A stretch of DNA of 64,000 bases from Psammoneis japonica (GCA_008632985.1 QPGO01000010.1:806001-870000), one strand, 5' to 3'. Numbered from the stretch's first letter, positions 2 through 41,100 are shown. A program made the numbers and translations. The notes: generated by a model from the sequence alone, not told the origin.

Positions 2-1456
2 GCCGAACTCAACAAGCTGGAGACATGGGCCACCGACATTGGCAATGCCTGCCTTGAAGCCACCACCAAGGAGAAGCTTTACATTGTAGCTGGACCCGAA
101 TTTGGCAAACTCGAAGGACACATCCTTGTCATCCACAAGGCACTGCATGGACTGCGCAGCTCCGGTCTCCGCTGGCACGAGCGCTTCGCCGACTGCCTGC
201 GAGCTGAAGGCTTCTTCCCCTGCCGCGCCGAACCCGACATTTGGATGCGCAGGAACGGCGACCACTGTGAACACATTGCCGTTTATGTGGATGACCTCGC
301 CATTGCCATGAAGGACCCTCAATCTTTCGTCGACACTCTCACGGAAAAGTGCAAGTTCAAGCTCAAGGGTGCGGGACCCATTGAGTTCCATCTGGGTTGC
401 GACTTTTCCCGGGACCCCGACGGAACCTTGTGCCTGTCTCCGCGCAAGTACATCGAGCGCATGGTCGACAGTTACGCCCAACTGTTTGGGGAGAAACCTG
501 CCACCAATGCCCTGTCACCTCTAGAGAAGGGTGACCACCCCGAACTGGACACTTCCAAACTGCTGGGACCCGATGGCATTCACAAGTTCCAGTCTCTTGT
601 TGGTTCACTCCAATGGGCAGTGTCCCTTGGTCGAATTGACATTACCACGGCTGTCATGTCACTCTCTAGCTTCCGAGCTGCGCCCCGTCAAGGCCACTTG
701 GATCGTGCCAAACGCGTCTGTGGGTGCCTCTCCAAGATGCGACACGGTGCTCTCCGCGTTCGCACGGAAGAGCCCGACCATTCGGATCTCCCTGCTCCGG
801 CCTATGAATGGATGCATTCCGTGTGTGGTGAAGCAGAAGAGATGATCCCGAAGGACGCTCCACCGCCCCTTGGCAAGTTCGTCACTACCACCCGCTGCGT
901 TGATGCAAACTTGTGCCATTGCATGCTCACCGGACGCTCTGTCATGGGAATGCTCCACTTCCTCAACAAATTCCCGGCTGATTGGTTCTCCAAGAAACAA
1001 GCCACCGTGGAGACTGCAACCTACGGATCTGAATTTGTTGCCGCAAGGAATTGTGTTGAGCAGATTGTCGACCTGCACATCACCCTGCGCTGCCTTGGCG
1101 TCCCGATCCGCAATGTTGGTTGCATGTTCGGTGACAACAAGTCGGTTGTAGACAGTGCCACCATCCCGCACTCCAAGTTACACAAGCGACACACCGCACT
1201 ATCGTTCCACCATGTGCGTGAGGCAATTGCCTCTGGTTGCCTTGAGCTCCACTTCATCGAAGGCTCCCGCAACCCTGCTGACATTCTCAGCAAGCATTGG
1301 GGTTACTCCCAAATCTGGGACCTTCTCCGCCCCCTCATGTTCTGGAACTTCATTCCATCCGAAGTCGAATCTGTTTCTGTGGCTCCTCAAGCAAACTGGG
1401 GAGTGACAGGATTTGAACAGGATTTGGATGCGCGCGAAGTGTCGCGCGCTGTTTAG
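2..1456 (+). CDS. pol: Copia pol fragment (reverse transcriptase + RNase H), open from the window edge, with many apparent Tyr->Cys/His changes
   Basis: Frame from nt 2 reads WATDIGNACL...KALHGLRSSG...IAVYVDDL...VDAN...TGRSV...WFSKKQATVETATYGSEFVAA...GDNKSV...NPADILSK, the copia RT/RNaseH motif series. Confidence 0.92.
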   Translation, partial: AELNKLETWATDIGNACLEATTKEKLYIVAGPEFGKLEGHILVIHKALHGLRSSGLRWHERFADCLRAEGFFPCRAEPDIWMRRNGDHCEHIAVYVDDLAIAMKDPQSFVDTLTEKCKFKLKGAGPIEFHLGCDFSRDPDGTLCLSPRKYIERMVDSYAQLFGEKPATNALSPLEKGDHPELDTSKLLGPDGIHKFQSLVGSLQWAVSLGRIDITTAVMSLSSFRAAPRQGHLDRAKRVCGCLSKMRHGALRVRTEEPDHSDLPAPAYEWMHSVCGEAEEMIPKDAPPPLGKFVTTTRCVDANLCHCMLTGRSVMGMLHFLNKFPADWFSKKQATVETATYGSEFVAARNCVEQIVDLHITLRCLGVPIRNVGCMFGDNKSVVDSATIPHSKLHKRHTALSFHHVREAIASGCLELHFIEGSRNPADILSKHWGYSQIWDLLRPLMFWNFIPSEVESVSVAPQANWGVTGFEQDLDAREVSRAV

Positions 1457-11925: not shown

Positions 11926-13833
11926 TTACCTTTTCGCTGCTGGCTTCTTATCACTGCCTCGAAACAGTTTTCTCCCTTCGTTCTTACGATTGTCCGGCGC
12001 CGTCTCTTCACTTACAATACTCTCGTCCAATTCCATCATTAGCTTTGCGACTTTTTCTTCCAAAAGCGGAATGCAATTATGAATCATGTCTAGTGTTTCT
12101 GCCCGTTGTCTTTGCGCTTCCGCAATCTCGTGTCGGAGAGGCTCCTTGTTGGCTTCGAGACTTTCCGTTGTATTCTTGAGAAAGGCAAGATCCTCCGATA
12201 CCTTTGCATAGCGTCGCTTGAGCGTGTCGCATCGCTGGCCAAGCTGATTCCGTTCCTGCTTGAGCGCCGAGATCAATTCGGCAGAGGCTGATACAACCTT
12301 TTTCTTATTATTATTGTGACGGCGCCCGCTGCCGCGGTCATCGTATTCTCGTCGAATCTCCTCCAAACATCCCTCGTAGTAGATGCGCTGTTGTTCCAGT
12401 TGACTCTTGAGCAACGTGTAATACTGGCTGGCAAATCCCTCCAGCTTGCGATGGACCACCTCGTCTTCTTGTGCGTCCGAAAGACCGGGACTTAGCGTTC
12501 GTTCGTAGGAAGACGTATTGTTGGGATCGGCCGTCTCGACCAGTTTGTCATCCTTGCTCTGTAAGAGACGATGGACATAACCCTGTCCCACAAAGTCCCA
12601 TACATGCTGTGTCTCCGTATCAAGTGCGTAGGCATGAAGTGTCTCATTGTAATGCTGACCAGCATGACCATGTGACAGAATGTTGCTAGTACTTGCAGAA
12701 GACATGGACTGTGAAGCTTCTCCGGCACCACTTGTTGTATTGTCTGGATTTTCCACCACCATACTTCTCCCACCACAGGAAACAACGCCACAAATGAGGC
12801 ACACATAATTCTGTTCAGTCGTACCGCAGACATGACACTGTGACAACGCCTCGTTCAAGCCAGAGTGATCGTATCGACACACGGGACAGGGTGAATCCTG
12901 CCACTGCAATAAGCACTCCAAATGAAAGGAATGATTACAAACTGTGGTAAGAATAGAAGACGACGGTTTCTGACCAGTCACACTACTTTGATCCAGCCGT
13001 TCCAAACACACGGCACAGTTTTGTACTTCGTGCGATGTTGTCAATGGAGAATGGCATGGACGTGGCCTATTATTTGCGTTCGTGTCAGCATTGTCAGGTT
13101 GTGCCTCATGATTGCTCGGAATGGGCGAGGATCGATTATTCAAGGTGGATGGAGCAAAAAACGGACTAATGAGCGACACCCCGTCTTCTCCCTTGAGTGC
13201 CACGACATGATAAACACTGCACGTGACATCCGGCTCGAGACTGCTAAAGGCCTTTCCATTCAAATCCCGTACAAAACTCTCTGCCGCTTGTTTCGTGGAG
13301 AGTTCCAACAAGACAATATAACTTCGAGATGGCATCTCTTTTTGTTCTTTCACATCATGTTGATCAGCTCCTGTATCTCGCAAAACGAGGTCTCCCAGGC
13401 TCGTAGTCAAATCCGATGTTGGTTCTTTTGGTGACGATTCGCATCCTTCAGTGACTGATGCAGTTGCGCTGTTGCTCCCGACAGCCACTGCGGGTGTCGG
13501 TGCTATTTGAGCATCACTTATATCACCGTGTTTTTCAGGCGAAGCAATTACGATTCGAAGCAAATCAATAAACCGTCGATGCGACCGGCAGAAATTCAAA
13601 ATTCCCTCTGGAACTTGTTCGGGTGGAACATTGACCATGGCAACCAGTTTATCATTGTCCGTCGTGGCTCCCTTTGGCACGCAAAACTCGTCTTGAGTAC
13701 TGCCGAGACTACCATTCTTTGCTTCTTCCAACGTGTAGACACATCCGCCGTATGTACCAAGAGCGGGATTACCAAAGCTTACAGGACGGGGACGTATTCT
13801 ACCATTTCGAGGGGTAGACGGAGACGAGGACAT
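11926..13833 (-). CDS. BRAP: BRAP2/ETP1-like E3 ubiquitin ligase (BRAP2 domain, RING-H2, UBP-type zinc finger, coiled coil)
   Basis: CAVCLERLD...CNHSFHLECL...CPVCRY; CLICGVVSCG...HAGQHYNETLHAYAL...VWDFVGQGYVHRLLQ; LLKSQLEQQRIYYE. Confidence 0.9.
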   Translation of the reverse strand: MSSSPSTPRNGRIRPRPVSFGNPALGTYGGCVYTLEEAKNGSLGSTQDEFCVPKGATTDNDKLVAMVNVPPEQVPEGILNFCRSHRRFIDLLRIVIASPEKHGDISDAQIAPTPAVAVGSNSATASVTEGCESSPKEPTSDLTTSLGDLVLRDTGADQHDVKEQKEMPSRSYIVLLELSTKQAAESFVRDLNGKAFSSLEPDVTCSVYHVVALKGEDGVSLISPFFAPSTLNNRSSPIPSNHEAQPDNADTNANNRPRPCHSPLTTSHEVQNCAVCLERLDQSSVTGQKPSSSILTTVCNHSFHLECLLQWQDSPCPVCRYDHSGLNEALSQCHVCGTTEQNYVCLICGVVSCGGRSMVVENPDNTTSGAGEASQSMSSASTSNILSHGHAGQHYNETLHAYALDTETQHVWDFVGQGYVHRLLQSKDDKLVETADPNNTSSYERTLSPGLSDAQEDEVVHRKLEGFASQYYTLLKSQLEQQRIYYEGCLEEIRREYDDRGSGRRHNNNKKKVVSASAELISALKQERNQLGQRCDTLKRRYAKVSEDLAFLKNTTESLEANKEPLRHEIAEAQRQRAETLDMIHNCIPLLEEKVAKLMMELDESIVSEETAPDNRKNEGRKLFRGSDKKPAAKR

Positions 13834-17511: not shown

Positions 17512-18779
17512 TTAGCTTGCTTCGGTGACTTTCCTTACTTCGATATCGTCAATTTTGACCCTTAGAAGCGGTGGTCCGGAGTTTTGTCCAGGAATTACTC
17601 CTTTGATACCTTTCTTTGTAGGAAGGCTTGCTAGTCTCGCCACTACCGCCATTGATGCATCATCTATAATCTGCCCAATGACCCTTCTGCCTTCTCTGTC
17701 CATGCTGCTAACGGGAGCCGCATAATCTCAAACGCTGTCCCGACCATGCAGAGAGGTCAGGTGTCACTCACTCCAGAATTGAAACATGCTTCTTACATCC
17801 ACGACTTACCACTTGCGAATGCTTCATCCTCTGACTCCAAACCGCTTCCACTATAACCGAGCCCATTACCGGGTATAGAAATCAATCCGGCAGCGTCGTG
17901 TTTGCGCACACTAATTTCTTCTGCCAAGGCTTTGTCTCTTGGTCGCGGTTGTGCCAAAAAGTCATCACCAGCTTTTGATCTTCCTTTGGATCTAGCAAAA
18001 GCTGCCGATTGGGATGGAACGCCAAAGTCAAGCCGTTGCTGCGGAACAATTCCGTTCAGAATCCCTCCAACCAACAAGGACACGGGTGTTGTTAATCTGC
18101 CAAAAGAAGCGTCGTCGCTCATCGTAACAATGCCAACAGACGTCAAGAACTTTAGCATTTGATTCACACTATTTGGACAATCCTCCCCGTAGAGACCAAA
18201 CCTAATGGTTACCGATTCGCTTCGCCCGATATCCAAGCTCAATTGCACAAGGTGTGTAATTTTGCCAAATACCTGGGGCACGGGCTCCCCGACAAGTGGT
18301 GCATCCAACATTTGACCGTTTGGTCCACAAAGTGGATCAGTAGCATCACATCGATCCTTTCCTCCCCAATTCCAACCTACGGCGCCTATGAAGCAAGTAG
18401 TATGCAAAAAGAGAAACCGCAAAAAAAAAAGTGAGCAGAACTACAGAAGAAGGTATCTGGAAAATACTGAATGCGTCTCCGATAATCACTCACCATCCCA
18501 TTGACCAATCTCTAAACAGTTACCCGCCTCTCTGCACTCCTTTTCTGCGCCTCCAACAGCACGTTCCACAGCTACAGACGGTGGGCTTGGAAGCAGCACC
18601 AAAGATCCACCACCCAACAGAAGATTGCCAAGGATGCGTCGCCGGTCGGACGATGATCCTTCAACCATGTTGAGCGCACAAGAAGATTTTCGTTTCGATA
18701 GTTGACTCGTCGTCCATGCTGAAATAGATAGAGCATGAAAAGTCAACAAGGAGAATAAACTCCGCGAAATCATCGTCAT
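17512..18779 (-). CDS. Cyclophilin-like (PPIase-fold) protein, probably thylakoid-lumen targeted (3 exons)
   Basis: Signal peptide + SA-W, twin-Arg SDRRRIL and a hydrophobic stretch; ITHLVQLSLDIG...IRFGLYGEDCP; RRVIGQII...PLLRVKIDDI. Confidence 0.7.
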
Positions 18780-21509
18780 GTTCAAATGTTGCAACAGTAT
18801 ATTAACAACAACCGCCATGAGCACTGGCACTGGGCACTGAGCACTGAGATACCATAGGGCCCTAGTACATGATGAATGCTGAGGATGGACAGACGGCATG
18901 CAAGGGCGAACTCGCTCGCTCGCTCGCGTCGCTCGCTCATTCACTGCGATGCTGGCTGCTCGCTGTGGTAGACTAGCCCCACGCAAGCTACAGGACAGTT
19001 TTGGCTGCTGTTTTAGCATGTACAGCAGGGCCCTACATGCCCTAGAGTGGCTGTGCTTGGCCTGTTGTCTTGCCGATGATGTGACAGGAACCGATTCAAT
19101 GTCTGCCATGATGGTCGCAGGGTCTTTTGTTGCAAAGATGCTCGCAAGTCGATCACGTGAAATGACAGCAGAGCAACACGGCAATCAAGAAAGGGTGGCC
19201 GCCCAACACCCACCAAAAACTTCCAAGCACGTTGTGATGACCACACTTTTTTGAGCTGCTTCCACTGTCCCCACCTCTTTTTGCTGTCCTCAATCCTTTC
19301 ATCTTGTTTGCGTTGTCCCTCATTTCCTCTTCCCTGGAATTTGCACTCTCTGACGATTCTCTGGTTTCCAGTGAGTGCTGCATCTTCTTTCTCCAGTGAG
19401 CTGGTCTTGTTTGTGCTGGCTGTTTCCTTCACCACTGTTGTTTGCAGCTCCAGTGGGGAGTGTCATGTTCTTTGCCAATTGCCCCATCCACAACAATGGG
19501 TGGGGCATTTCCCATGACTGCTGTGTGCAGTGCCCAGCATTGTCTCCACCGCCACATCTTGTGCGCAGCAGTTTCCATCTGCTCTGCTGCATCCACCCCT
19601 GTCACTGCTGTCTGAGCATTGCCATCTGCCACATCCACTGCTTCCACTTCTTCTTTTTTCACCATGTGTCAGCAGCAGCTGCCTCAGTCATGTTGATCAC
19701 AACACTGCAGTCTGCGGCCGGCGAACTTGTGTTTTTTGTCAATCTCCATTGCAGCAGCAACTGCTGCCATGTTGCTCCTGCAAGGCAACACTGATGTGAG
19801 AAAGAGCAGCACACATGCCATGTGCCGCCAACCACTGATTTTGTGCTCACCTTCCCCTGGAGCATTGCCGCTCTCAGCATCGTGCCCGCAGCTTGTGTTG
19901 CTGTCTTTTTCTGGCTTTTCCACCACGTTGGCCATCAGTTGACACCTCACTTCTTCCAGCTGCTTGGTGCTTGTGTCTTGTTCACACTGTTGCTCCATGA
20001 CCATCATGCGTGCTGTTGTCAGTGCGGCCATGGAATTCTTGTGAATCTTTTTCACCAAATGGGCGTCATCACCCAATCCTGAAAATGCATTGTGCAACAG
20101 TTCTGGCACTTGTCACATGCAGATGGGTTCCATGGCATGGCATGGCATGACATGCCAGTTGAGCACCTGCTTGCTTCTGCCACACACCTTGTCCAACAGA
20201 CCCTGCTTGACTGAATTTGCAATCCCGGAAAAACAACCAGCTTTGTGTGTGCTGCCATCTTTGCCTGGCACAACCATGATTTGAAAGTTGTTTTGTTTCA
20301 TGTGGGCCTTTTGCACCCCCACTGTCAGTGTCTTGCATGACTTGGCTTGGCCCACCATGTGTTGCACCTGCTTGAAAAATCTTGCTGCAGCTCCTGCACA
20401 GTCATCTGCCTTGATGATGCAGGTTGCTGTCCATCATGAATGCTGCCTTGAGACTCTTGAAATTCAACACAGGTGTCCCATCATCCATGTTCTTCACACC
20501 AGATTTGTCAGCAATCACAGGCATGATTGCACGCCACGCACTGTTGAGCTGGCGACAGTTCTTGCAGCATGCCTCAATTGTTGCTTTCTCTTGATTCTGC
20601 TCCTCTTCTGCAACCACTTGCTGGTGCATGGTGTCACACACCCAAGACACATTTTGGCCAGCATTGCATTTTGGCCTGGATTTCACACAACTTCTTGGTG
20701 TGAACTTTGTGGTGTTGTTCTGTGCTGTGGGTGTTGCACTGTGGCAATGGGAAGCAGCAAAGAATTCTCCCACATCCCCCTGGGGAGACTCAGCCAGTGG
20801 ATGGAGATTGCGCTGCCATGGACGTGGGAACATGGTGGCTCGTCATTTCCACAGAGTGCTTTCCTGTGCACTGCTTGAAGACAACAGCACATGCGCACAA
20901 TGTGGCGACAATGTGAGAACACCCCTTGCCATCTGTTGCCAGTTTGGGGGCAATGACATGTTTGCAACATTTGTGACTTGACAATGTGCAGCTGCATTTT
21001 GTGCTCATGCTCACCCGCCACATTGTTTTGCGTGTGTTCCTTGCAGACACTGTCTCTGTGTTGTTGTTGTGGGCTGCCCTGCAAGCAATTTTGTTTTGAG
21101 GTCATTGCCATTTTTTTGTGTGACGTTTGAAATGCTGTGGCTGTCATTGCGCTCTGTGGTCACAGCGCAATTTCTGTGCATCCTCAGCCCCTTCTGATGC
21201 ACCGCCCAGGCACCGTGCAAATGTTGCTCAAAGAAATGTTGTTTTTTGTTGCCACAGTTTCTTGACTCATTTCACAGGCACACTTTCACATTGATGTGGC
21301 ACTTTGAATTTTTTGTTTGATCATCTCACACTCAAAGCCACCGTTGTGGCACCAGCCCAAATGGCCAAAAAATGTGGTCCCGTGCTGACCACATTTGGCA
21401 ATGACCCCAGTGACCACATCACATTGCATCGCAGTGCACCTCTGTTCTTGTCCACAATGCAGCCACAGGCAGCAGGGTTTTCCCTTGCACTCAGCTGCCA
21501 TTTGTGATG

Positions 21510-21512
<3 letters not shown>

Positions 21513-21598
<86 letters not shown>
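21513..21598. repeat. (TG)43 microsatellite
   Basis: Perfect dinucleotide run. Confidence 0.97.
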
Positions 21599-21600
<2 letters not shown>

Positions 21601-22942
21601 ACATCATGCATTGTTGTCATGCCATTGTCTGGAGCAAAAATCCAGCTCAAATGCAGAGAGGCAAAAAGCACTGGAGTGCCTTGACCCAATCACAAAGCCT
21701 TGATGACTCAATTTGTGATGGAAGTGGCAATGGAACAATCAACGTGGCAACAAACAAAACACAGCAAGGTTTGGCACAGGGTTGGCAGAGATTTCTTGGG
21801 ACAAAAACCTCTCCCACCTTGAGCTTTTGAGAAGGAAGGACACTTTTCTTGTGGCCATCACCAACAACGCAGCTGCAGAAGATCCTTCTGACAACGCATC
21901 AGAAATTGTGCACCTGATGCCACACAGGGGGGGTGCCAAAATGCCACACAGGAAAGCGCGGTTTGCTGCAAAACAACAGCTCATTTCGCAGATGATTGCA
22001 ACGCCGGGGGGGGGGGGGGGCAATGTGAATGACTTGCCAATGGAGCGTGCATCAGATTTTGTGTCATTTGGTGAGGATGCCATTGGGTGCAAGAATGACA
22101 TTTAAACTGCTTGAGTGGGCAGTCATGAAAATGAAGATGCGCCAGCAGCGTGTGATGAGCCCACATCGGTGCCAACAATCTTGTTGATGATGGTCATGAT
22201 GAGTCCAAAAGAACAAACCCACAAGGTCAGGGAAAAAATGGATGGAGACATTTTAGAAGAAGAAACGTCCTTGGGCAACAAAGAGACGTCAAAACTGGAA
22301 ACACCCAACAATGAGTGAAACCAAAAAATGTCAAGAAACCTTCCCAAAAAGTGCAAGCCAGAACACATGTGAAATGTTTTGATGCTGGGGATGGCACACT
22401 CACCTCTCAATTCATCCACTCCCATTGAAAGCGCAAAGGAGGCAATGCTGGAGACAAAAGGCTTAAAAAATGTGGGCAGGGATGCAGTGAGAGGTTTCTT
22501 GCAACCAAACAACCTGTTTGGTTGATGTTTTCATGGCATCCAATTGTGGCAAACAAGGGCAATGTCAACTCTCCACAACACATGGATGCACATTTTGGTG
22601 GCCTCCATCATTTGGAAATTGGACAGCCTCTCAGATGCCAAATGAGCTCCAGTTTTGAACAGACAGCATGGGGCCCTTGCAACTCACCACCATTTTGGCT
22701 CAGTGAACACTTGGTGCAAGGCGATGTTTTCAAACACAGCATTGTTGGATTTGGACATGCCAGCAGGGCACCACTCCTGAAGGACAATGGGTCAATCATC
22801 CTTCCATTTGACAAAGAGGTGGCCACCCAAAATCTCAGCATGAAGCACCTGTGTTGTTTGCATTGCAACGCTGTGCATTTGAGAGAATCCAAGTTGCCAG
22901 GAAAGAACAATCTGTTGAGATGAATGCAGAGATTGGACCCAG

Positions 22943-23393
22943 TGCAGCATGCATGCAGACAAAAGGTTGTTTTTGTCACGCCCTTTGTGACATTTAAAGG
23001 CTGCAACACGTCGCCGTGACACATTGACTCTTGTCAGCAGCTGTGTGTTGCACTCCTCCCCATGCATCGCGCGTCCATGCGGCTCTTTACCAACGTGCAC
23101 TGACACTGCACGGTTTTGGCGGAACAGTGTGGGTGCGCACGAAGGAACACACAGAACTGCACAAAGTTTTGCGCGTTCGACAGTGATCAACGTTGCTGCA
23201 GACAACTCCCACTCAGGGTTTCGAACCCCTGGCCTCCTGCCCAATGGTTGCGATGAACCACTCCGCTGTGAATTCATTCATGATGCAGCATGCATGCAGA
23301 CAAAAGGTCATTTTTGTCACACCCTTTGTGACATTTAAAGGCTGCAACACGTCGCTGTGATGCATTGACTCTCATTGGCAGCTGCACATTGCA
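22943..23393 (-). mobile_element. Non-autonomous miniature LTR retrotransposon (TRIM), 451 bp
   Basis: 110-bp TG...CA direct repeats at 22943-23052 and 23284-23393; 4-bp TSD CCAG (22939-22942, 23394-23397); minus-strand PPT GGGGAGGAG abutting the LTR at 23053-23061. Confidence 0.85.
23203..23276 (-). other. tRNA-derived segment (Pol III A/B boxes) inside the TRIM
   Basis: Minus strand CAGCGGAGTGGTT (A box if CA<-TA) and, about 30 nt later, CAGGGGTTCGAAACCCTG (T-arm/B box hairpin); anticodon arm not recognisable. Confidence 0.5.
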
Positions 23394-25749
23394 CCAGTGC
23401 TTTTTTGTGAAGTTTTTGACAAGAACAACCAACCAGAGTTGCCAACTTGTTGTGCTGCAACTCAGCAGATGTTGCTGCAGAAATCTAAACTTGGTCAACA
23501 TGTGAAGAAGGAACAGGCCAAAAAAATGCTGGACACTGAATCTGTTTGCATTGCACAGCTGTGAAAGAAGCCAAAACCTCTTTCAACAAGCAAGACAAAG
23601 AAACAGCATGGCTGCAAGTCCAGAACACCAGCCAATGAGGAGAACATGGGGCTGCAACGAGCAAATGTGAGTCCAGTCATTCATCACTGGTGACGAGTCA
23701 CAATGACTCACAATGCATGCACCCCTCATCTTTCCAATGTGCCTTTCCTTGTCACCAACCATCTTCCAATGAAATGCTTTGCCAATGATGCACAACCAAG
23801 CACATTGTTGATCCCCCTCCCCCGCTTGCATTTGTGGTTGAATCACAGGAATTTTTGTGACAGTGCTGCTGTGTCCATCAACAACTCTTGCACTGGTTTA
23901 GAAGATGAAAGCAAGATGTGCTGTTTGCAATGAAAAACTGAGTGAGCACTCATGGAATGAGGCGCACAGCCCAAACAGGGAAACTTTGGTTGCCATGAAC
24001 AAGGAGATTGACAAAGAGATCTGGAGCTCCTTTGGCGCCATTGATGCAGGCTGGGTGACAACATTGTGCTCCGCAAATGCAATCAGCATGGCCTTGTCCC
24101 TCTGCAACAGAATTTGCACATCAATGATGCAACCCACTCCATTTCAAGATGCATCTCCAAACTTGCATGCATTGAAAAGCACCCAGACAGAGCTGCACAT
24201 TGTCAGTTTGGCACGCACAACTCAACTCAGCAGCACACAGCAACCACAGCACAAGAATTTTGCAGACTCACATGTGTTTGACAACGCCCAAGGAATTGGT
24301 GCTCACAAGAGATTGCAGTCATCTAGAAAACCGAGACAATCCATCACTGCCAACTGTGGTCAATGTGGACTCTGTTCTTGCCAGCAATGGAAAGCGATTG
24401 CTGGAAGAGCTCTGTTCCATCATGATGAAGTGGAGCACCCCACCAAGACTCAAGGAACACTTGCATCACCAACTTGTTGTTCTCCAGTCAGTGTGCCCAG
24501 TCTCTTGAGTGCACAAACTTGCCAATGAAGGGGAAAATGAAAGCAAAAGACAGCATCAACAAGCTGAGTTTGGATGTCCAATCAGCTCTTGCAGAAGCGC
24601 CACAGTCCACACATGTTGCTCTTGCCAACATGACAGGGAAAGGAATGGCATGTTCAAGGATCATTGGGTGCCAAAGGACCCACTGTGCTTGGAAGAACAA
24701 CAAGATTTTGAGAAGGCACTCAGCACAGGAAGGAGCAGAGGTTGTGTCAGAGCATTGTTTTGAGATGCTTGCCATGAACATGACTTGTGTTCTTGGTGAG
24801 GAATGGGGGGGCACATTGTGGAAGAAATGCACAGCTGCAATTGATTGCAAGGCAGGCTGTGGCACAACAATTGATGTGCCCAAGGTGGACACAACCACGC
24901 AACCTCATTTCACTGGTTTGAGAACAATGATCTCTGCGATGATGACAAAACAAATCAGATGGTTGAGTTGCTGGAAAAAAGGCACAAACAGTTGGCAGAG
25001 AGTGATGCCACAGAAGAAAAATGAAGGGAACATTTTTTGTGGGTGAGGAGGGAATCACAAAATTCTTGCTTGGGCTGCTGTGTTTTTTTCAAATGCACAA
25101 AGGAACATTTGTTTTTGAAACAATGGTGGATGCCAAGAACTTTGCACTGCACCTTGCAGCAGTGGGCAGCTGATTTTGGTGTTTCTGGCTAACAATGGTT
25201 TTTCAATCACAGTCAAGTTTTCAAGAAATCAGTTTTTAGACCACTTTCTCACCCTCCATGAGGTGCACAAGATGCATCCTTCCCTGTGCACAGCAAACTG
25301 TGCAACTTGGAAGCAAAGCACACAAGCCACAATTTGAAAGAAAGAAAAAGCAAGCACTTGAAATGGCACAGCTTCACCAGCAACAAATCATTGCAGAGCA
25401 CATTCTGATGTCATCTCTTCAGTGGTGGGCAATCATCACTGGGTTTTGGAGTTTGATTTGGGGGCCACTGGCTTTTGGCATTGGGCTTTCTGTTGGAGTT
25501 TCCAAAGAGTGCCGCTCTGGATTCCAAGTCACTTCACATGCATCACAGAGCAAACAAAGTGGCTGCCCTGTTTCCATGCTCATCCCAGCTGCCATGCAGG
25601 TTTCCCAAGTGGCTTTTTTGCAGCAACCAAAAAGGGTTGGTGTTCATGAGTGCACAACAAGCAACACAAGATTTTTAGAAATGGTCAACCCAACTTGTTG
25701 AATGAACTGAGGTGACAGGTGACAAGCAGCATGCTGCTGCTCATTCCCA

Positions 25750-27800
25750 GTGCCATTCACCATGCAAGTCAGGTGCATGAGCCATTGGGTCCAATCACAC
25801 TCCATTCAGTCAGACCCAACAACAATGCGGCATGCCAGAAGAGCTGGTGGGTCAGCCACCTCATGCACAAATTCTCCACTTTTGTCAAGGAGAGGCAAGA
25901 AGAACATGCATTCCCTCACAAGACTTGGGTTGTTCTTGAGATTTTCCCACTTGTCTGTGGAAAATTGCATTGCATGATTGAGTCCAAGGCACTTGGCACC
26001 AACACGAGTGGTCATTCGGTGCAGTTGGAAAACAACCTGGTGCATGTCACACTTGCAACAAGGAGCTGTGTTAGACTCAACCAATGCAGTGATGAGATTT
26101 CTGTTTTTGTGCAAGAGTCCTCCACAACCGCCCCAGCCATCAAATTGCCATTTGCCACAGCTTCTTGGAGAAAGCAGCATTGCATTCCCACATGCAGCAT
26201 TGGTCATCAAGCTTTCTGACAGGCTGTGGTTCTTCAACATGGAAGTGTGTTTGCAGCACACTGAGAATGCAAAAATTGATGATCATTTCCTGCTGACAGC
26301 AACCACCCTTCATGCAGCATTGTTGGAACAACTGGCTTGAGGTGGCACAGAAATCCCTCCACCCTGCCACTCCCTTCCCAGCACAAATGCAAGGGACCAA
26401 AAATGCTGGGTGCATTTGGAAGATTTAGAAGAGACAGGAAATTGTTCTTGCCTGTGAAAAAGCAGTCTTTGGTGACTGTTCTTGGCTTGTCATCAAGCAC
26501 ACAGAGCAAAGTGACAAGAACATTTTGATTTGCTGGTCCATCTCTTTCACAATCTCTGGTGTCATCTGGTTGGCTGGCTCTGGTTCCCAGTGCACTTCAT
26601 GCTCCATGTCTGCCAGGCAAAGCAGTGCCTCTCAAACAACTGATCTGCCCTCTGAGTTTGCTGTTGCTGTGCTTCTTGCACTTTGACCATGGACAGCAAA
26701 ACTTCTGAGCCTTGGGCAAAGTTGTTGCCAAACCTGCAACAGAAGGCAGAGTGCATGTGTTGCAACCTCAACCAGTGTCTGACAAAATCCTTCATGGTTG
26801 TCTTCACAATGCCTGGAATCTGCCAGAAGATGCACCATGATGTTGAGGAAAATGAATGTGTCAATGCCCAAATTCCCATGGAATGTGGCACAAGTCACCC
26901 ATGCCATCAGCATCAACACAGTTTGCAAGGTGGTTGATCTCATCACCGCTGAATGAACAATCCTTCAAAAACATTTTTGTGGTCTCTGTTGTCCACTCCT
27001 CTGATGAACACAAGTCTTTGTGGTGATCTCTGCTGCCTCACTGAACAAGTTGAAGTTTTGCATGTAAATGGACTTTTGCAGATCATTCCCTGGGTCAGAT
27101 GCAGCTGATGCTGGATGTGAAGATGGTGTGCTGCGATCAAGCAGGGAAGCACCAGGACCATCCATGTCACAATCAGCACAGGAGCCGTTGGGGCAAGGCA
27201 CATTTAGACCATCAAGATGTCTCTCTCTGCTTGGAGTGGAGTGTGCATGTTGCCAACAAGCAACTGTGAAAGCAGGAGGTGTGAGTTGAAGATGAGAGCC
27301 TTGCTTGGGACAGTCTTGCAACATGGCAAGCAGCTCTGCTGCTGCTTGAACCATGGTGCCAGTCTTGTGACAGCAAAGTTGGTGAGGATTGCTTGGGTCA
27401 CACAATTGGTTGAGTTCATCATGGAAGCAACCCCACATCAGCTGATGGCCAGTCCTTTTGTTGCCAAGAGAAAACAAAAATGAGTTGTTGTTGGTCTGCA
27501 ATCAACCATCACAACTTCAGCATGCATTGAAGTGAGGCTCAATTGTTGGAAAGGGTGTGTGTCATCTGCCCACACAAACACTGGGAGAACTGGCACAGCT
27601 GATGGGGTGCCACTCAGTTGAGTGGCAGCAACAATTTGCTGTGCTTGCTCAGTCTGACAGATGGAGCTGGTTGCACTGTCCTCTGCTTTCTCCACCGGCA
27701 CAATGAGTGGTTCAATGTTGCGTGACAGTCCAAGCACACATGAGACAGCATCTGAAACAAAGAGTGGCATGCATGCCCATGCATGTCAATGCCAACAGGT
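25750..27800 (-). pseudogene. Decayed CMC/EnSpm(Plavaka)-like DNA transposase
   Basis: Ordered remnant motifs across frames: VFVWADD, LQDCPK, GIVKT, NFLSLLNLP...FGPLHLCWEG...EGF...KP; boundaries approximate. Confidence 0.5.
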
Positions 27801-29234
27801 GTTGGCAGATCAGCGCACATGCTGGCCCACTTGCCCCCCAGAGTGCATGAGCATGCACCTCTTATGATGTTGGTGAGTGCAGGGTGTGTGCAGACCATTG
27901 TGTCTGTTTCAGGCAGATTTGTGATGCTGCAGATGAAGCTGCTGGGTGGCCAATGCAAATGAGATGATGGAAGGAGCTGCACCATCATGGCTGGCTTCAT
28001 CATCTGATGAATGTTGCAACAATGACAGCAAATCATGCTGGTCATCTTAACTTGCTGGAGTGACCAGGCCACCAAATGTTCAACTTTGCTGCCCAAGTCT
28101 CCACTTGAATTGCCAACAAATCATGCCATGGGAGCACCCTCAATGTGAGAAAACAACAAGGGATCATCATGCATGAGCACAAATGGGGCAGGAGAAGAGC
28201 TGGCATCTTGGGTCACCAAGAGCCAATGGGTGGCATTCATGCCAAAAAAACCTGGAGGAACAGAGCCAACATTGTTGCCATCTTGTGAGGGGCCATTGAA
28301 TGATGAAAAATCACCATCTTTGAATGAAGCAGGGGAGGCAACAACTGTGCTGGCTGAAGCAAGAGCAGGGTGGGTGCAGCAGTGGCAATTTTCATTGTGG
28401 CAGAGGAGAGCACATTGCTGAGACCTTGAGTGAAAGCAACCCACAACTGGTTTGCAAAACTGTTGGCATGAGTCACAAGCAAGTGTGGCAAAAACACCAA
28501 GCAGATGTGGTGCGTCCCCCACAAAGAAAATGAAGAAACCAGGGAAAATCGCCAAACCCGCCAAGGTGCACTTCCCACTGGTGTCTGCCACATGTGTGCT
28601 GCAATTGGGACAATCTTCAAAATAATTTGGTGCATTGTGACTGCCAAGGCCCAGCAAAGTGCAGGAGAAACAGTTGGCATGAGCGACAGCCCAGAAGGTG
28701 GAGCGCCAGCATGCCACTAAGATCAGCATCAGAGCACGATGCCATCATGTGCATCACAGCAAAACACAGTGTCAGCCAGCAGTCCAGTGAGTTGGACACA
28801 TTGTGGGGTGCACTGGCAGCACAAATGGAAGATGTGTTTTCAAAGGGTTGCAGTGTGTGCATCACAGGCAACGGGGGTGAGGAAGCAGCAGGTCACGAGC
28901 TCCTCGCTGCAGGCAGGGGGGGTGAGTGGGGGAAGACTCTGATCCAGATGAGGGGCACACCACTGGTGTGGGGGAACAAGTGACATTTGTTGCTGGTGTG
29001 TGGGGAATGAATTTACTGGCAGGGCCCATTGCAGGTAAAATGCCAGAAATAAGAAATGAACACTGTAACAGGAGAGGGAACCAGCAATGGCGCATGCATG
29101 CAATAAGTTTGGTGGCGGAAAGCACGCGCGCTTGTATCCGGTAAGACCGCGCCCACAAAAAACTTGCCTCAGCCCTCATACCGTAGCCCTCCAGCATCAG
29201 CAACAAAAAACATTGAATAGGCCAACCGGTGTAT

Positions 29235-29521
29235 GAAAAGAACCCACAATGGCGGTCGTTGACTGTGACCATGCGTGACCACGTGGTCACGCTCGCGTGA
29301 CCGCCGTGACCACGTGGTCACGAACGATTGAGAAACGGTCCTCAGAAGAAGTTTTCAAACGGAGCGCAAAACGTGACAAACGCATCTGCTCGAACCATAT
29401 GAACGCATCTGCTCGAACCATGAAAAAACTCGATGTTGCCACACACTGCCCGTTACCACAAGTCATTCATTGACAACTGAAATGGTCAAGATCGAATCCC
29501 AGCGCCAAAGGGAATGCAGGA
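29235..29521 (+). repeat. Direct duplicate of 30587-30857 (upstream region + first ~13 codons of the 30818 ORF)
   Basis: Near-identical from GAAAAGAACCCACAATGG to GGGAATGCAGGA, with an internal ~22-bp re-duplication. Confidence 0.9.
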
Positions 29522-29726
29522 TCCTCCCTACCGTGACAGAATGAGCTGTTCCTTACGTACAGTAGACGCAGCAGTTGTCGCTACCTGCCGCTCAGTCCAT
29601 TCATTGTAATGAATTGGACGGATTTGGGAGAATGTTGGCACTGCAAAGACTAAACTAAATTTATGTTTATGAGTATGAACGCAAATCGCTAAAAGCCATG
29701 CCACGATGATTAGGAATAACTAAGTA

Positions 29727-29851: not shown

Positions 29852-30625
29852 GCTTTTAGAGTTTGAGAGAGACAGAGAATTCGACAAACAAGGATTGTCT
29901 TGGACGGCTCTTGGTTTTACGCCCCGCAATCGTTGTTTAAATTATGTTGGTCCTTCGAGCTAAACAACCGAACGCACCCAATACCGTTGAGGCATCAATT
30001 TCAATCCTGAGTTTTTAAAATGACTGCAAGAGGAAAACACAACTTTGGTGAGCTTCTCTTGAAGTGTTCCCGCGTCAAGGATGAGGTACATTGGAAGCGG
30101 CGTCCGTAGTCGGCGGTTCGGCTTCCACGGGGTAGTGCTTCTTTGAGCTGCTTGCAAAGCTCGGTCTGGAGCTTTTTATCCTTCCAGAGTTCGCTGCTGC
30201 TATTCTTGAGACGATCAGCCTTGATTCCACGAAGTTTCGCCGACTAAACAGGCAATTTGGATCCCGCGGGCAACGAAAGCAGAGTGCGCCCTGCACTGCG
30301 AACACCGTCGACGATGGCATCACGTACACCGTTTTCTGGCAAGCTGCTTCCCCTGCCACTCGTAGAAGGCGTAATTGTTCGAGTGTTAGGCGTTGCACAC
30401 ATTGTAGCGGAAAATACGGAAGCCCCGGGAGCCGTCTAAAATTGCCATCGTCATCGGCATCAAATTCGGGCGAAAAAAATTGAAAATTGAAAATATCGTA
30501 CCTCTAACGCACAGACAGACAGAAGTACAGTACCCTACAACTACCAGTAGAGCACACTGTATTTTGTGTATTGATTTACTCGCAACGAAAAGAACCCACA
30601 ATGGCGGTCGTTGACTGTGACCATG

Positions 30626-30674
30626 CGTGACCACGTGGTCACGCTGCGTTTTCCAGCGTGACCACGTGGTCACG
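30626..30674. repeat. Nested palindrome: 21-bp perfect inverted repeat whose arms each contain the 18-bp palindrome CGTGACCACGTGGTCACG
   Basis: CGTGACCACGTGGTCACGCTG-cgttttc-CAGCGTGACCACGTGGTCACG. Confidence 0.9.
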
Positions 30675-30817
30675 TGGTCACAAACGAGTGAGAAACGGTC
30701 CTCAGAAGAAGTTTTCAAACGGAGCGCAACACCTGACAAACGTATCTGCTCGAACCATGAAAAACTCGATGTTGCCACAAACTGCCCGTTACCACAAGTC
30801 ATTCATTGACAACTACA

Positions 30818-31840
30818 ATGGTCAAGACCGAAGCCCAGCGCCAAAGGGAATGCAGGAGCCGCAAGCAGGCAAAAGATCCGAATTACAACCGAAAGCGTGC
30901 TGACAAAGAAAAGAAGCGTCGCAAGGAGAAGAAGGAGCAACAGTTACGGGATCCACTCGCCATGTCCGATTTGATTTTGAAGCACCAAGCAAAGGAGCGA
31001 GAAGACTTTCTGGAGCACCAAGCAAAGGAGCACAAAGACATTCTGGAGCACCAAGCAAAGGAGCACAAAGAACTTTTGTCAAGGGTGTCTAAACAAGGCA
31101 ACAAAGCTCGAAAGTATGTCACTAATTTGTTTGGTATGGCCGTGGTGGGTCCATACGGTTCCGATCGGGTATTGAAGCCCAATACTAAGGAGAATCAAGA
31201 TCATGTATACGATCTGTCAGAAGGCGAGATTCGTGAGAACGAAACCTTGTGCGAAGACGGATATACTACAGATTGTGAAGAGCAGAGCCATGCCAGTGAT
31301 TTCAGCAGGTTCAATCGTCGCCGGAAACGGAAATGGGGTCACGACAACATCACTTTCCCTTTGACGGAGGATTCTAAAGCGATCCATGTAGATTTCTATA
31401 ATGACAGAGACCTCTCTACAGTTGGATCAAAGGTTTGCCACGAGGCCTTTGAAACATACGTGCCCGGTTTGAAACGCACGAGCGGCCTTGGCAAGATCCT
31501 CCAACAAGTCGAGGATCGATTGGAACCACCAGAGCTTTTGGAGGACCTGCAGTACATTGCCTGGGGTCGTAGCAAGCTTCAGCACCAGAAGTGGGTGTAC
31601 CGCTTGGACGACCGGCGGATGTACGCAGAAACTTTAATGCGTGTCATGCATCACCTCTGCCCCAACTGGACCTTGCATCCATACAACCCCGAAGCGGAAC
31701 GCCTAGAAAAACTTCTCGATGATCGAGACGCAAAGATTGCGCGGCTTGAGCAAGAGCTCGCCCTAGCCTACCAAGATGATTTCGAGTGCGAGTACGGCCG
31801 ACCGGGGAAGCGCCGCCGCAATCAGGGATCCTATTACTAA
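30818..31840 (+). CDS. Hypothetical protein (340 aa) with a basic N-terminal helix, three 11-aa repeats and NLS-like clusters
   Basis: Intronless ORF; EAQRQRECRSRK...EKKRRKEKK; L(K/E)HQAKE x3 (33-bp period); RRRKRK, KRRR. Confidence 0.6.
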   Translation: MVKTEAQRQRECRSRKQAKDPNYNRKRADKEKKRRKEKKEQQLRDPLAMSDLILKHQAKEREDFLEHQAKEHKDILEHQAKEHKELLSRVSKQGNKARKYVTNLFGMAVVGPYGSDRVLKPNTKENQDHVYDLSEGEIRENETLCEDGYTTDCEEQSHASDFSRFNRRRKRKWGHDNITFPLTEDSKAIHVDFYNDRDLSTVGSKVCHEAFETYVPGLKRTSGLGKILQQVEDRLEPPELLEDLQYIAWGRSKLQHQKWVYRLDDRRMYAETLMRVMHHLCPNWTLHPYNPEAERLEKLLDDRDAKIARLEQELALAYQDDFECEYGRPGKRRRNQGSYY

Positions 31841-38149: not shown

Positions 38150-41100
38150 CAGCTTTCCCTGCAACCAACCTAAACGTCGTATTAATCCTACGTTACTGGT
38201 AGGAAAATTTATTTTTCATACAAAAAGCCACAGTAAAATCGCCAGCAGCGTTATATTTAAATCTTATCTATATTCTAGAGTTTTTTATTTACCTACAAAA
38301 AATATCTTTTCACCCCGCGAAAAGCGTCCTCACAATGAAACCCTTGTCAAAATCAATCGCACTGCGGTGCGTTTTGAACTCTTTGACAAGCTTTTCAATG
38401 GTCTCAAGAGACAAGGCTTCATGATGAACCTCTTGAGACACATCAGGTTGTGAAAGAACCATGTAAGCACAAATGCATCGTCGTGCTCGTCGCGAGAACT
38501 TTCGCATCCTGTCAGTCGTGAGTGCGCTTGATGACATTGATTCTCGTACCAACTCTCTAAAGTTTTGCTTTCCCCTCTTTCTTGACAAAGGTTGCAAACG
38601 ATAATGCTGCTTTGCCAGTCCCCAAGAACATTCAATGCCCTCCCCAGCCATTTCTGGGTGACACTTTGGCGTTCTGTCAATGGTCACACCCATTTTGCGA
38701 CCCATGGTTTGCAACAACGTCTCTTCGTTGACGAAATCATCGCAAGCAGCCATCAAGTGAAGAAGAGATGTTGACTTATTGATCTCTCCATCTTTGCCCT
38801 TTGCACCATCCACAGTGCATTTTCCAGGGTTGTTGGGATCAATCCATCCTCGCTCACACAAAATTTGCTTTGGTCCTTTCGGCTTGTTGACCCATCCGTG
38901 CTTCACCTTTTGAATGGTTTCTTCGACAGGTGTGTTGTTGCTCTTTGCCATGTCAATCAATTCATCCTTTTTCTTGCCCCTGATGTTCTTGATGTTCTTT
39001 TGTAGAAGCTTGTCAAAAATTTCATCACGCAGGAACTTCCGAGTTTCAGTTTGACCCTCGACAGGTGCGTCACATTTCTCAGCTTCTCGTTCTTCCGGCG
39101 TCATCCAGCATGGTCCCTGGTCTTCCTCACTGAATGCCATTGTTTGCACTTGTCCTGCAGACAACATGCCAACTGCTTCAGCATGAGGACCTGGAAAGCC
39201 CTCTTCCTGAAGAATCTCAGTGGGATGCATCTTGTTCTGACTGCCGCCGACTCCTGCGTTCATCGTGCGCTTGTTGCAGATTAGTCCGTCTGCTCTCTGC
39301 TTGTCGTGCCCGCAAGAATGATCAAAAAGGAAATGACAGTCAAATTGAGGATGCAGCACTTTCAAGCAATCCACGCAATCCTCCAATCGCACCAACATGT
39401 GGTTGTAATTCCAGCATCCGTCGCCATTCGCTCCACACTTGAACTCACGGATGAACGGACTTTTCTTCAACTTCGGCTCACGCTGCTTCTTGCTGAACAC
39501 TGTTTCTGCAGCTTCTTCATCAGTGTGGCATTTGCCTGCTCGAGTTTCATTCATCTCTCGGAGTTGCTCTTCCGAAATGTCTCCATCTCGAACAAGGCCG
39601 ACCTCTCGACATTGAAATGCAGACTGCATCACGCCTTCTCCATCATCTTTGGGCAGCAGCGGCCGCTCACCTTTGGGACCCGACCAGCTGCTTGTGCTCA
39701 GCAAGCATTGCTTAAAAACAGCCTCGTCCTGTCCAAATGTCATGACAGGCTTTACATTCGGATCCTTTCTCACACTTTCACTTCCTCCAAATTGCACGGA
39801 CAGCTTGGGCGCAAGGCTTGGATGCTCCGGGTCGATGACAGTGTCGACATGACACTCGACAAAATCTTCTCCATCAACTTGGCATTCATGCCCTGTTTTT
39901 GCTGGGAGAGCTTCAGCTTTGACAATGTCCATGGCAGTGGCTTTTGGAAGTTGCATCCAACGTGGGCATCGTTCTTCCATCATCAAGTGTCGACGGACCA
40001 TCGCATTCCGACACCTCACATTGTCGGGACGTTCATGATTGTCAACACAATGCATCTTTTTGTTTGGTCCATGCCGGAAACCAAATAGATTCATCCAGTT
40101 GGAAACTGCATTGGAAGAAATGCACAGTTGGTTTTCCCCGGTGAGCAATCCATGCTGATTCAGGAACTCCCGTTCCGACTCCAAGATGTCTTCCCTGTTC
40201 TTGCGACGGTCATTGTTCTCTCTCTTTAAGAATTCCGGGACAAGCACTTCGTGGAAGTGGTCTGTGGCCACCTCAGTGGAAAGTCGAGAAAGGTTTGCTG
40301 TCACAAACTCAATGAATTTCCTCTTCATCTTTGGATGTGCTTCAAATGTCGGTGGGTCTCCTTTTCCTTTTGGTCGGGGATGAGGAAAGGAGCTGAGATT
40401 CCTAAAGATGCGACACCAAGCAGCTGCGGTTTGGCGACTTTTTACAAAGTTAACACCTGCACCGCTGAGGTCATTGATTGCATGCTGACAGCAGTCAAGC
40501 CATGCAGTGTTCCTTTTTGGCAGCTTCTTCAACACATGGTCAAGCGCCATCGCAAGATGCTGGCATCTCAATCGAATCACATGAGCGTCGTTGGGTGTGC
40601 ACAGGTTGTCAGGGTCGCCTCCTTCGATCACTTCTTTCCATCCATCATGAAAAGCAAATCTAGAAGTCAATTTGTCTGTCTGTTTCTCAATTGCCTTTTT
40701 TGCATCCTCTCCATCATCTGCATTGAACAGGTTCCGCACGGTCATGTCATCCTAGAAGGCGCCAACAACAGCGGTCAAATCATCGGCAGGCATGGCATCA
40801 TTCTCAGGAGTGTCATCTTCATCAGCACCACCATCATTGGATGATTTCTCCTCTGTTGCAGAGGACTCTAGCAGTTCTTTCCTTTTCTTTTTCTTTCGCT
40901 CGTTTTCCTGCAACGTCTGTGTGCACTCGTTTGCGTCACACCCCACTGTTCTCTTGCTGGAGCCGGCTCGAGTTTCTACTTTCTTGTTGTGCTCTTCAAC
41001 AGTCAACATCACACGCCTGAGATCATTGATTGTTGAGGGCACATGCCTTGGCAATTCTTGCTCTTTGCAGGAACAGTGAGCCACAACAGACGGCTCTCCC

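Follow-up and report, generated by a model that had tools for sequence, protein, structure and literature searches.

The subject of this study is a window of 64,000 nucleotides (nt) from Psammoneis japonica (GCA_008632985.1, QPGO01000010.1:806001-870000; positions are counted from its first letter), which at 22943 to 23393 carries a short element with long terminal repeats (LTRs), embedded in a domain of about 10 kb that has lost nearly all of its TA dinucleotides. The domain and the parts of the element are listed below, with observed/expected ratios given as O/E.

19044..29013, no strand: converted domain, 20 TA versus about 600 expected, sharp edges
22939..22942, no strand: left target-site duplication, CCAG, directly 5' of LTR1 (a 4-bp match has a chance of 1/256)
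22943..23052, no strand: LTR1, 110 nt, TG start and CA end, from repeat search and base-by-base comparison
23053..23283, no strand: internal non-coding domain (core), 231 nt, 16 CG (O/E 0.92) and 1 TA (O/E 0.09)
23053..23061, minus strand: polypurine-tract-like run GGGGAGGAG, 9 nt, adjoining LTR1, read by eye
23217..23227, minus strand: B-box-like motif GGTTCGAAACC within a tRNA-like stretch at about 23207-23270, a lead only
23284..23393, no strand: LTR2, 110 nt; a right-flank-anchored contig covers 23367-24400 with 0 other letters
23394..23397, no strand: right target-site duplication, CCAG, directly 3' of LTR2

The repeat search returned a single direct-repeat family (22943-23053 and 23284-23394, 87% identity, spacing 341), both LTRs read TGCAGC...ATTGCA, and two 110-nt LTRs with the 231-nt core give an element of 451 nt in total. 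Contigs of the public sequencing run X1 were placed on 22001-24400 at a likeness of at least 80% (run X2 gave one extra contig and run X3 none). Family contigs diverge into unlike sequence at 22943 (5 contigs), at 23052/23053 (8 and 9 contigs) and at 23394, and the LTR ends are therefore true family termini. The family is a high-copy one: 1362 contig pieces lie on the element and their summed word depth is 12,000-200,000 versus 52-66 in the flanks, a summed contig depth that is not to be equated with copy number. No further copy was found in the window by blastn with word size 7 or by a repeat search in a purine/pyrimidine alphabet tolerant of transitions, and two degenerate patterns against metagenome contigs and one against viral contigs gave 0 matches. 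At the junction of core and LTR2 (23272-23283, …ATTCATTCATGA) family copies carry deletions of 1-4 nt, and two family contigs there read GCTATGA where the window copy has GCTGTGA.

The first-pass annotation had called the element a terminal-repeat retrotransposon in miniature (TRIM). It shares with TRIMs the short LTRs with TG..CA ends, the short non-coding core, the target-site duplication, the high copy number and a possible tRNA-like polymerase III motif, and this part of the label stands. It differs from them in that its duplication is 4 bp long, in that the tRNA-like stretch fails in both ARAGORN and Rfam, and in that no primer-binding site was recognised: whichever orientation is assumed, no TGG-initiated site lies next to the LTR or a few bases from it, in a comparison from which the host tRNA set was absent. 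Without a primer-binding site the label is incomplete, and we refer to the element as TRIM-like. The purine run on the minus strand next to LTR1 suggests that the element lies in minus orientation, but GGGGAGGAG is short and so gives weak support as a polypurine tract adjoining the 3' LTR. If the tRNA-like stretch at 23207-23270 is real, the element is a candidate carrier of a polymerase III promoter; GGTTCGAAACC was matched to the commonly known B-box consensus, and plant Cassandra TRIMs carry a polymerase III gene fragment (5S sequences). ARAGORN found 0 tRNA genes in the 64-kb window and 0 in the internal domain, also at -ps80 (calls at -ps60 are meaningless), Rfam gave 0 matches to the internal domain at E up to 1, and Pfam recognised no family among the open reading frames (ORFs) crossing the element.

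When the two LTRs were compared, 14 differences were counted in 110 aligned bases, all of them transitions, with 0 transversions and 0 gap columns. Twelve of the 14 form six adjacent swaps in which one LTR reads TG and the other CA (22968/69, 23020/21, 23032/33, 23035/36, 23044/45 and 23046/47); the remaining two are CG in LTR1 against CA at 22980 and CG in LTR1 against TG at 23015. The recount is identical to that of the first-pass annotation (110-bp LTRs, 14 differences, six TG/CA swaps, two CG versus CA/TG changes, no transversions or indels). Pyrimidine-purine steps, which occupy 68 of the 110 positions, contain all 14 differences and the other 42 positions contain 0, as expected from the earlier claim that the change is directed to dinucleotides. 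The 34 steps read CA/CA at 12, TG/TG at 11, CA/TG at 6, CG/CG at 2, and CA/CG, CG/TG and TA/TA at 1 each. If transitions make up 2/3 of mutations, the probability of 14 transitions out of 14 is 0.003, and this figure does not yet count the tandem arrangement.

A control pair of repeats in ordinary DNA (29235-29524 versus 30587-30860) has diverged by 5 transitions, 14 transversions and 32 gap columns, without a swap; the LTR pattern is therefore not the usual divergence of duplicates in this genome. The earlier description of a post-insertion change far above background is upheld. The same annotation had warned that dating by LTR divergence would be inflated here, and the apparent divergence of 12.7% (Kimura two-parameter distance 0.147) against 0/42 outside the steps bears this out. 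The control repeats themselves are direct repeats, each some 290 nt long and at a distance of 1.35 kb from one another, which lie close beyond the edge of the converted domain and contain an inverted GTGACCACGTGGTCAC-type motif; they may be another terminal-repeat element that was spared conversion.

A single template serves for the two LTRs of an insertion, and the differences between them therefore arose after integration. It is possible in principle, and in our estimate unlikely, that the LTRs were unlike from the start or were overwritten (a recombinant, gene conversion, or mis-polishing to the family consensus), so that their differences are family polymorphism. The family is abundant and is polymorphic at exactly the swap sites, contig depth is greater on LTR1 than on LTR2 (about 200,000 versus 89,000 in the best bins), and the inner part of LTR1 lacks flank-anchored read support, all as this explanation would have it. 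The matching CCAG around the pair speaks against it, being what one intact insertion leaves, and a borrowed polymorphism would itself be transition-only and placed at TA, TG, CA or CG steps, so that the hypermutation stands and only its timing in place is lost. Flank-anchored contigs reach from the outer ends only 23 nt into LTR1 and 27 nt into LTR2, in both cases with 0 other letters, and the LTR2 states at 23373/74, 23376/77 and 23385-88 (three swap positions) are confirmed by the contig anchored in the right flank.

The hypermutation is confined to domains with their own composition. Within 19044-29013 the TA O/E is 0.01-0.04 and the CG O/E 0.10-0.26, the O/E of both TG and CA is about 1.9-2.0, and G+C is unchanged at 0.47-0.49. 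The number of TA per 500 nt is 0-3 within the domain versus mostly 10-35 in ordinary DNA outside TA-poor stretches. The excess of TG+CA roughly equals the deficit of TA+CG: left of the element the figures are 464 versus 422, and right of it 643 versus 654. The element has 3 TA versus 26.5 expected (O/E 0.11) and 22 CG versus 29.6 expected (O/E 0.74), and in the kilobases flanking it the O/E of CG is 0.17-0.26 and that of TA 0.04; judged by CG, but not by TA, the element shows less wear than the DNA around it. Two further stretches poor in both TA and CG, at 2001-3500 and 62501-64000, resemble the domain, and a stretch at 38.3-41.5 kb is TA-poor with CG near normal. The stretch at 62501-64000 runs off the right window end, with 1-2 TA and 2-3 CG per 500 nt and ORFs without a Pfam family. 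None of the 53 ORFs of the converted domain (64 ORFs scanned) has a credible Pfam family, two matches at E 0.005-0.01 being at chance level.

We considered whether these compositions could come from misread bases, modified bases at TA and CG of silenced DNA being called as transitions. A one-letter indel between the window and the reads at 23811 hints at a long-read assembly and the library type of run X1 is not on record, which leaves some room for such an artefact. Single contigs at word depths of 55.6 and 66.4 nevertheless reproduce the flanks at 22006-22965 and 23367-24400 with 0 other letters, that is, 960 + 1035 nt of TA-free sequence at a depth of 55-66; of the words sampled from 18001-28000, 0.95 occur in run X1, and strand-dependent miscalls would, by inference, yield conflicting reads at each site and break the contigs. 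The artefact is thus highly improbable. The indel at 23811 is an extra G after that position in the contig (depth 66.4/66.4) and is probably an assembly error involving one base.

A reading of the fungal repeat-induced point mutation (RIP) type was rejected. RIP, known from ascomycete fungi, resembles the present case as a transition-only, dinucleotide-directed and region-limited decay of repeated or mobile DNA after integration; it turns CpA into TpA and yields A+T-rich, TA-rich DNA. The polarity here is the opposite, in that TA is destroyed and nearly absent, TG and CA are created and doubled, and G+C stays at 0.47-0.49. Diatoms do have DNMT4 enzymes related to the fungal RIP factor RID, which are described in PMC9998398 as being of unknown function; these relatives cannot account for the loss of TA. 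There is no sign of long strand-coherent conversion tracts: a runs test on TG versus CA gave z = -2.1 in the domain and -4.8 in ordinary DNA. A perfect (TG)43 microsatellite at 21513-21599 lies in the domain, in the sole 1-kb block with non-random TG/CA runs.

The first-pass annotation had proposed that other copies be used to determine whether the swap sites were ancestrally TA or CG. Family variation was listed at places variable in at least 5% of depth. Each of the 32 places so listed carries a transition (A>G at 11, C>T at 10, G>A at 6, T>C at 5), and 30 of them lie in pyrimidine-purine steps, 22 as 11 adjacent pairs and 8 as single changes. A TA allele was taken as unambiguous if it is a single variant whose partner base is invariant; at paired places where the window reads CA, the number of contigs with T as first base minus the number with G as second was taken as a floor for the number of TA alleles. 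The alleles found are:

23026, window state TG: TA allele in 39 contigs
23038, window state CA: TA allele in 36 contigs
23135, window state TG: TA allele in 24 contigs
23171, window state TG: TA allele in 7 contigs
23309 (swap site 23309/10), window state CA: TA allele in 13 contigs
23020/21 (swap site), paired: T in 63 versus G in 52 contigs, at least 11 TA; 62% versus 42% of depth
23004/05, paired: 37 versus 25 contigs, at least 12 TA
23091/92, paired: 44 versus 29 contigs, at least 15 TA; 82% versus 42% of depth
23035/36 (swap site), paired: 41 versus 34 contigs, at least 7 TA
23032/33 (swap site, window TG), paired: 40 versus 32 contigs, at least 8 TA

At four of the six swap sites TA alleles thus rise above noise, and no swap site has a CG allele that reaches 5% of depth. 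At 23356 the family has C in 99% of depth, and it is therefore LTR2 that changed from CG to TG; the two single LTR differences are CpG decay.

It could be argued that all of the differences have this origin, the six swap sites having been CpG that lost 5-methylcytosine by plain deamination on opposite strands in the two LTRs. CpG decay is certainly present: it accounts for the single CG/TG and CG/CA differences (at 23356 the family state is CG), for the CG depletion of the domain, and for two conserved Arg to His changes and one Thr to Met change in a protein relic described below. As the source of the swaps it is very unlikely. A CpG origin needs a per-copy CpG loss of about 0.81, in an element that keeps 22 CG and has a core O/E of 0.92, and such a loss implies about 84 ancestral CpG in a 231-nt core that now has 16. 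At the rate given by the unambiguous CpG changes (2/8 copy-sites) only 0.2-0.3 swaps are expected, and the probability of six or more is 5e-8 to 1e-6. Moreover, CpG decay can neither create the TA alleles of the family nor remove TA. The retained CG and lost TA of the element, the TA alleles of the family and the Tyr changes in protein relics together favour a TA rather than a CG ancestry of the six swap sites, as the allele comparison suggested by the first-pass annotation does on unphased contigs, and by our estimate at most one of the six swaps is CpG-derived. Taken one by one, the ancestral dinucleotides of the six sites are inferred.

The direction of change can be read from two protein-coding relics:

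2..1453, plus strand: copia-type reverse transcriptase relic, Pfam RVT_2, E 6e-17, running off the left window end
38310..40745, minus strand: open 811-amino-acid ORF without a recognised family, 7 homologues at 35-45% identity, no Pfam match

For the copia relic an alignment was made to 120 homologues (57-74% identity), a column being called conserved at 80% or more. It differs from them in 34 of 279 conserved columns. Nine of 15 conserved Tyr are changed, 6 to Cys (TGY) and 3 to His (CAY), versus 24 of the 264 other conserved columns (Fisher p 4.7e-6), and none of 17 conserved Cys or His columns reads Tyr. Among the 120 homologues, 116 have no Tyr to Cys/His change, 4 have one and none has more than one. 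Two of 19 conserved Arg became His (CGY to CAY) and 16 keep CGN, and a single Thr is replaced by Met (ACG to ATG). The relic has 15 TA and 90 CG in 1452 nt, an intermediate stage, and is followed by the stretch at 2001-3500, in which TA and CG are depleted to the same degree as in the main domain. In the ORF at 38310-40745 the same change is seen at 9 of 14 conserved Tyr (5 His and 4 Cys), and only 3 Tyr residues are left (0.4%, versus 2.6-4.1% in its 7 homologues). This ORF looks like a TA-only conversion of a still-open, gene-like insert, and it perhaps stays open since TAA and TAG stops cannot arise. TA is thus ancestral and TG and CA are derived, and since each of the two ORFs shows Cys as well as His outcomes, both strands are hit; the first-pass annotation had reached the same view of opposite strands from the six swaps. 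TA conversion outpaces CpG decay and can act where CG is untouched.

These outcomes bear on a further explanation, in which the RNA of the element was edited from A to I by an ADAR-like enzyme before reverse transcription and then copied into DNA. ADAR enzymes prefer U before the edited A, a preference also cited in the Discussion of the Bigelowiella preprint treated below, and this would fit a TpA target. The LTRs share one template, however, so that editing before integration cannot make them differ, a non-repeated 10-kb domain is converted too, and each ORF has Cys outcomes (sense-strand A-to-G) together with His outcomes (antisense-strand A-to-G); we regard this explanation as exceedingly improbable. 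The G-to-A changes by APOBEC3 and the A-to-G changes by ADAR in animals are similar to the present case as deaminase-type, context-dependent clusters of transitions in mobile elements. APOBEC3 and ADAR work on a single strand, either before reverse transcription or in the course of it; in the present case it was integrated DNA that was hit, on both strands, as is seen from the LTR pair and from the converted domain of non-repeated DNA.

We therefore favour, with a probability of roughly 0.78, that a TRIM-like element lies in a transposon-derived island and that its TpA steps were changed to TG or CA by a DNA-level process after insertion. In this scheme a 451-bp non-autonomous LTR-type element would have inserted into the island, and A-to-G changes at TpA would give TG when they fall on the top strand and CA when they fall on the bottom strand. 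Since the process is near saturation, every ancestral TA would end as TG or CA at random and independently in LTR1 and LTR2, and about half of the ancestral TA sites would for this reason now be TG/CA swaps. A slower second process, CpG-to-TpG/CpA decay and presumably 5-methylcytosine deamination, would have added the two single differences. The enzyme may be a DNA adenine deaminase (adenine to inosine), as proposed for Bigelowiella, or one that makes a miscoding thymine modification, two possibilities between which the sequence cannot discriminate. The process may target repeats and mobile or foreign DNA: one affected stretch is a copia relic and another holds the LTR element, and the 10-kb domain and the ORF at 38310-40745 have no recognisable family.

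For the swaps we used a model with a TA conversion of 0.6-0.89 per copy and 7.5-13 ancestral TA per LTR. It expects 1.4-5.2 swaps, and the share owed to CpG is 1-26%, or less than 9% at rates measured in the element. Several observations weigh against our interpretation. Six swaps exceed the approximately 3 expected from present composition (7-8 TA per LTR); with six at the upper end, the ancestral LTR was therefore probably richer in A+T. TA alleles are in the minority at most sites, the swap sites at 23044-47 lie outside the coverage of the family data, and a lean in the CG direction is seen in 3 contigs at 23098/99 (the largest) and in 2 at 23078/79, which we took as the noise level. The variants at 23027 and 23164 are transitions outside pyrimidine-purine steps. 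Ancestral states were deduced from contig frequencies at single positions and not from phased copies, and assigning contigs to LTR1 or LTR2 by best match biases the allele frequencies. Run X1 is possibly the sample behind the assembly of the window and hence not independent of it, and the inner LTR1 states have assembly-only support. Lastly, T precedes TA at three of the six swap sites, a context that is enriched among surviving TAs.

That context is seen in the TA that remain. Of the 20 surviving TA in the domain, 16 are flanked by a pyrimidine and a purine (Y-TA-R: TTAA, TTAG/CTAA, CTAG), versus 17.5% in ordinary DNA (binomial p 1.8e-9), and the sole TA kept in both LTRs (context TTTAAAGG) has no family variant at 5% or more. 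The Y-TA-R survivors and the invariant TTTAAAGG TA suggest that some flanking contexts are refractory. A strict rule of this kind was ruled out by the three swap sites with T before TA, leaving a bias only.

TpA-directed hypermutation of integrated DNA has previously been described in one organism, the chlorarachniophyte Bigelowiella natans, by a preprint of 2026. According to the parts of that preprint consulted (Mettrop et al., bioRxiv 10.64898/2026.01.13.699255), mutation-accumulation lines underwent an approximately 1000-fold hypermutation, exclusively from TpA to TpG/CpA, in integrated viral DNA; the process was active in some lines only, the genome holds 124 TpA-depleted clusters, TpA-depleted genes are enriched in reverse transcriptase and DDE domains, and a DNA adenine deaminase was proposed. 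The diatom signature is of the same recently described kind, in a new lineage, saturated, and with CpG decay alongside. As far as the consulted parts allow, the two have in common the TpA to TpG/CpA transitions on both strands, the confinement to particular regions, the long-term depletion of TpA and the clustered enrichment of CpA+TpG. They differ in lineage, Bigelowiella being a rhizarian and the named relatives of the window pennate diatoms at 44-52% identity. They also differ in degree, with a TA O/E of 0.01-0.04 here, near saturation, versus 0.45 reported for the Bigelowiella viral region, and in target, transposon relics and a miniature LTR element here versus the integrated viral DNA of the preprint. 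CpG loss joins TA loss in the oldest domains of the window, and the Results and Discussion of the preprint are silent on CpG; nor do these sections hold an LTR-pair analysis, the kind of evidence used here. The rate in Bigelowiella was, by the same account, measured in mutation-accumulation lines, and the rate here comes from sequence. Decay of methylated transposons at CpG is the other known system in play. It accounts for the two single LTR differences and for the depletion of CG in the domain, and it differs from TA conversion in that it cannot remove TA or turn Tyr into Cys or His and is the slower of the two here. Our literature searches turned up no account of TpA hypermutation in diatoms and, at the level of titles and abstracts, none of a TRIM family or of 5-hydroxymethyluracil in diatoms.

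These results extend the range of the phenomenon to a second major and ecologically dominant eukaryotic lineage, with sharp domain edges and a direction fixed by protein relics. The LTR pair serves as an internal clock, indicating action on integrated DNA and on both strands that is fast relative to CpG decay and background mutation. In such genomes LTR-divergence ages are inflated, and degraded elements lose Tyr codons and TAA/TAG stops and turn into long false ORFs; the many copies of the family offer material on which context preference and rate could be measured. Going one step further, we lean, by a small margin over even odds, toward the view that in diatoms, or in this lineage if not in all, a DNA editing process akin to genome defence removes TpA from transposon and foreign DNA, as a mirror image of RIP, homologous to or convergent with the Bigelowiella process, and saturating within the lifetime of one LTR insertion. 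If this is true, the trait would be widespread across the stramenopile-alveolate-rhizarian group, and transposon dating, annotation and gene prediction would be systematically distorted by the lost TAA/TAG stops and Tyr codons.

Other genes of the window are a BRAP2-type ORF at 11926-13833 (minus strand), whose best named relatives, at 44-52% identity, come from the raphid pennate diatoms Seminavis, Nitzschia, Phaeodactylum and Mayamaea, a pheophorbide a oxygenase fragment and a DUF6824 protein. Within the ORF at 45148-47238 there is a 126-nt tandem duplication (45839-46096) whose copies are 98% identical, and all three of the differences between them are T/C transitions, two of them TG versus CG.

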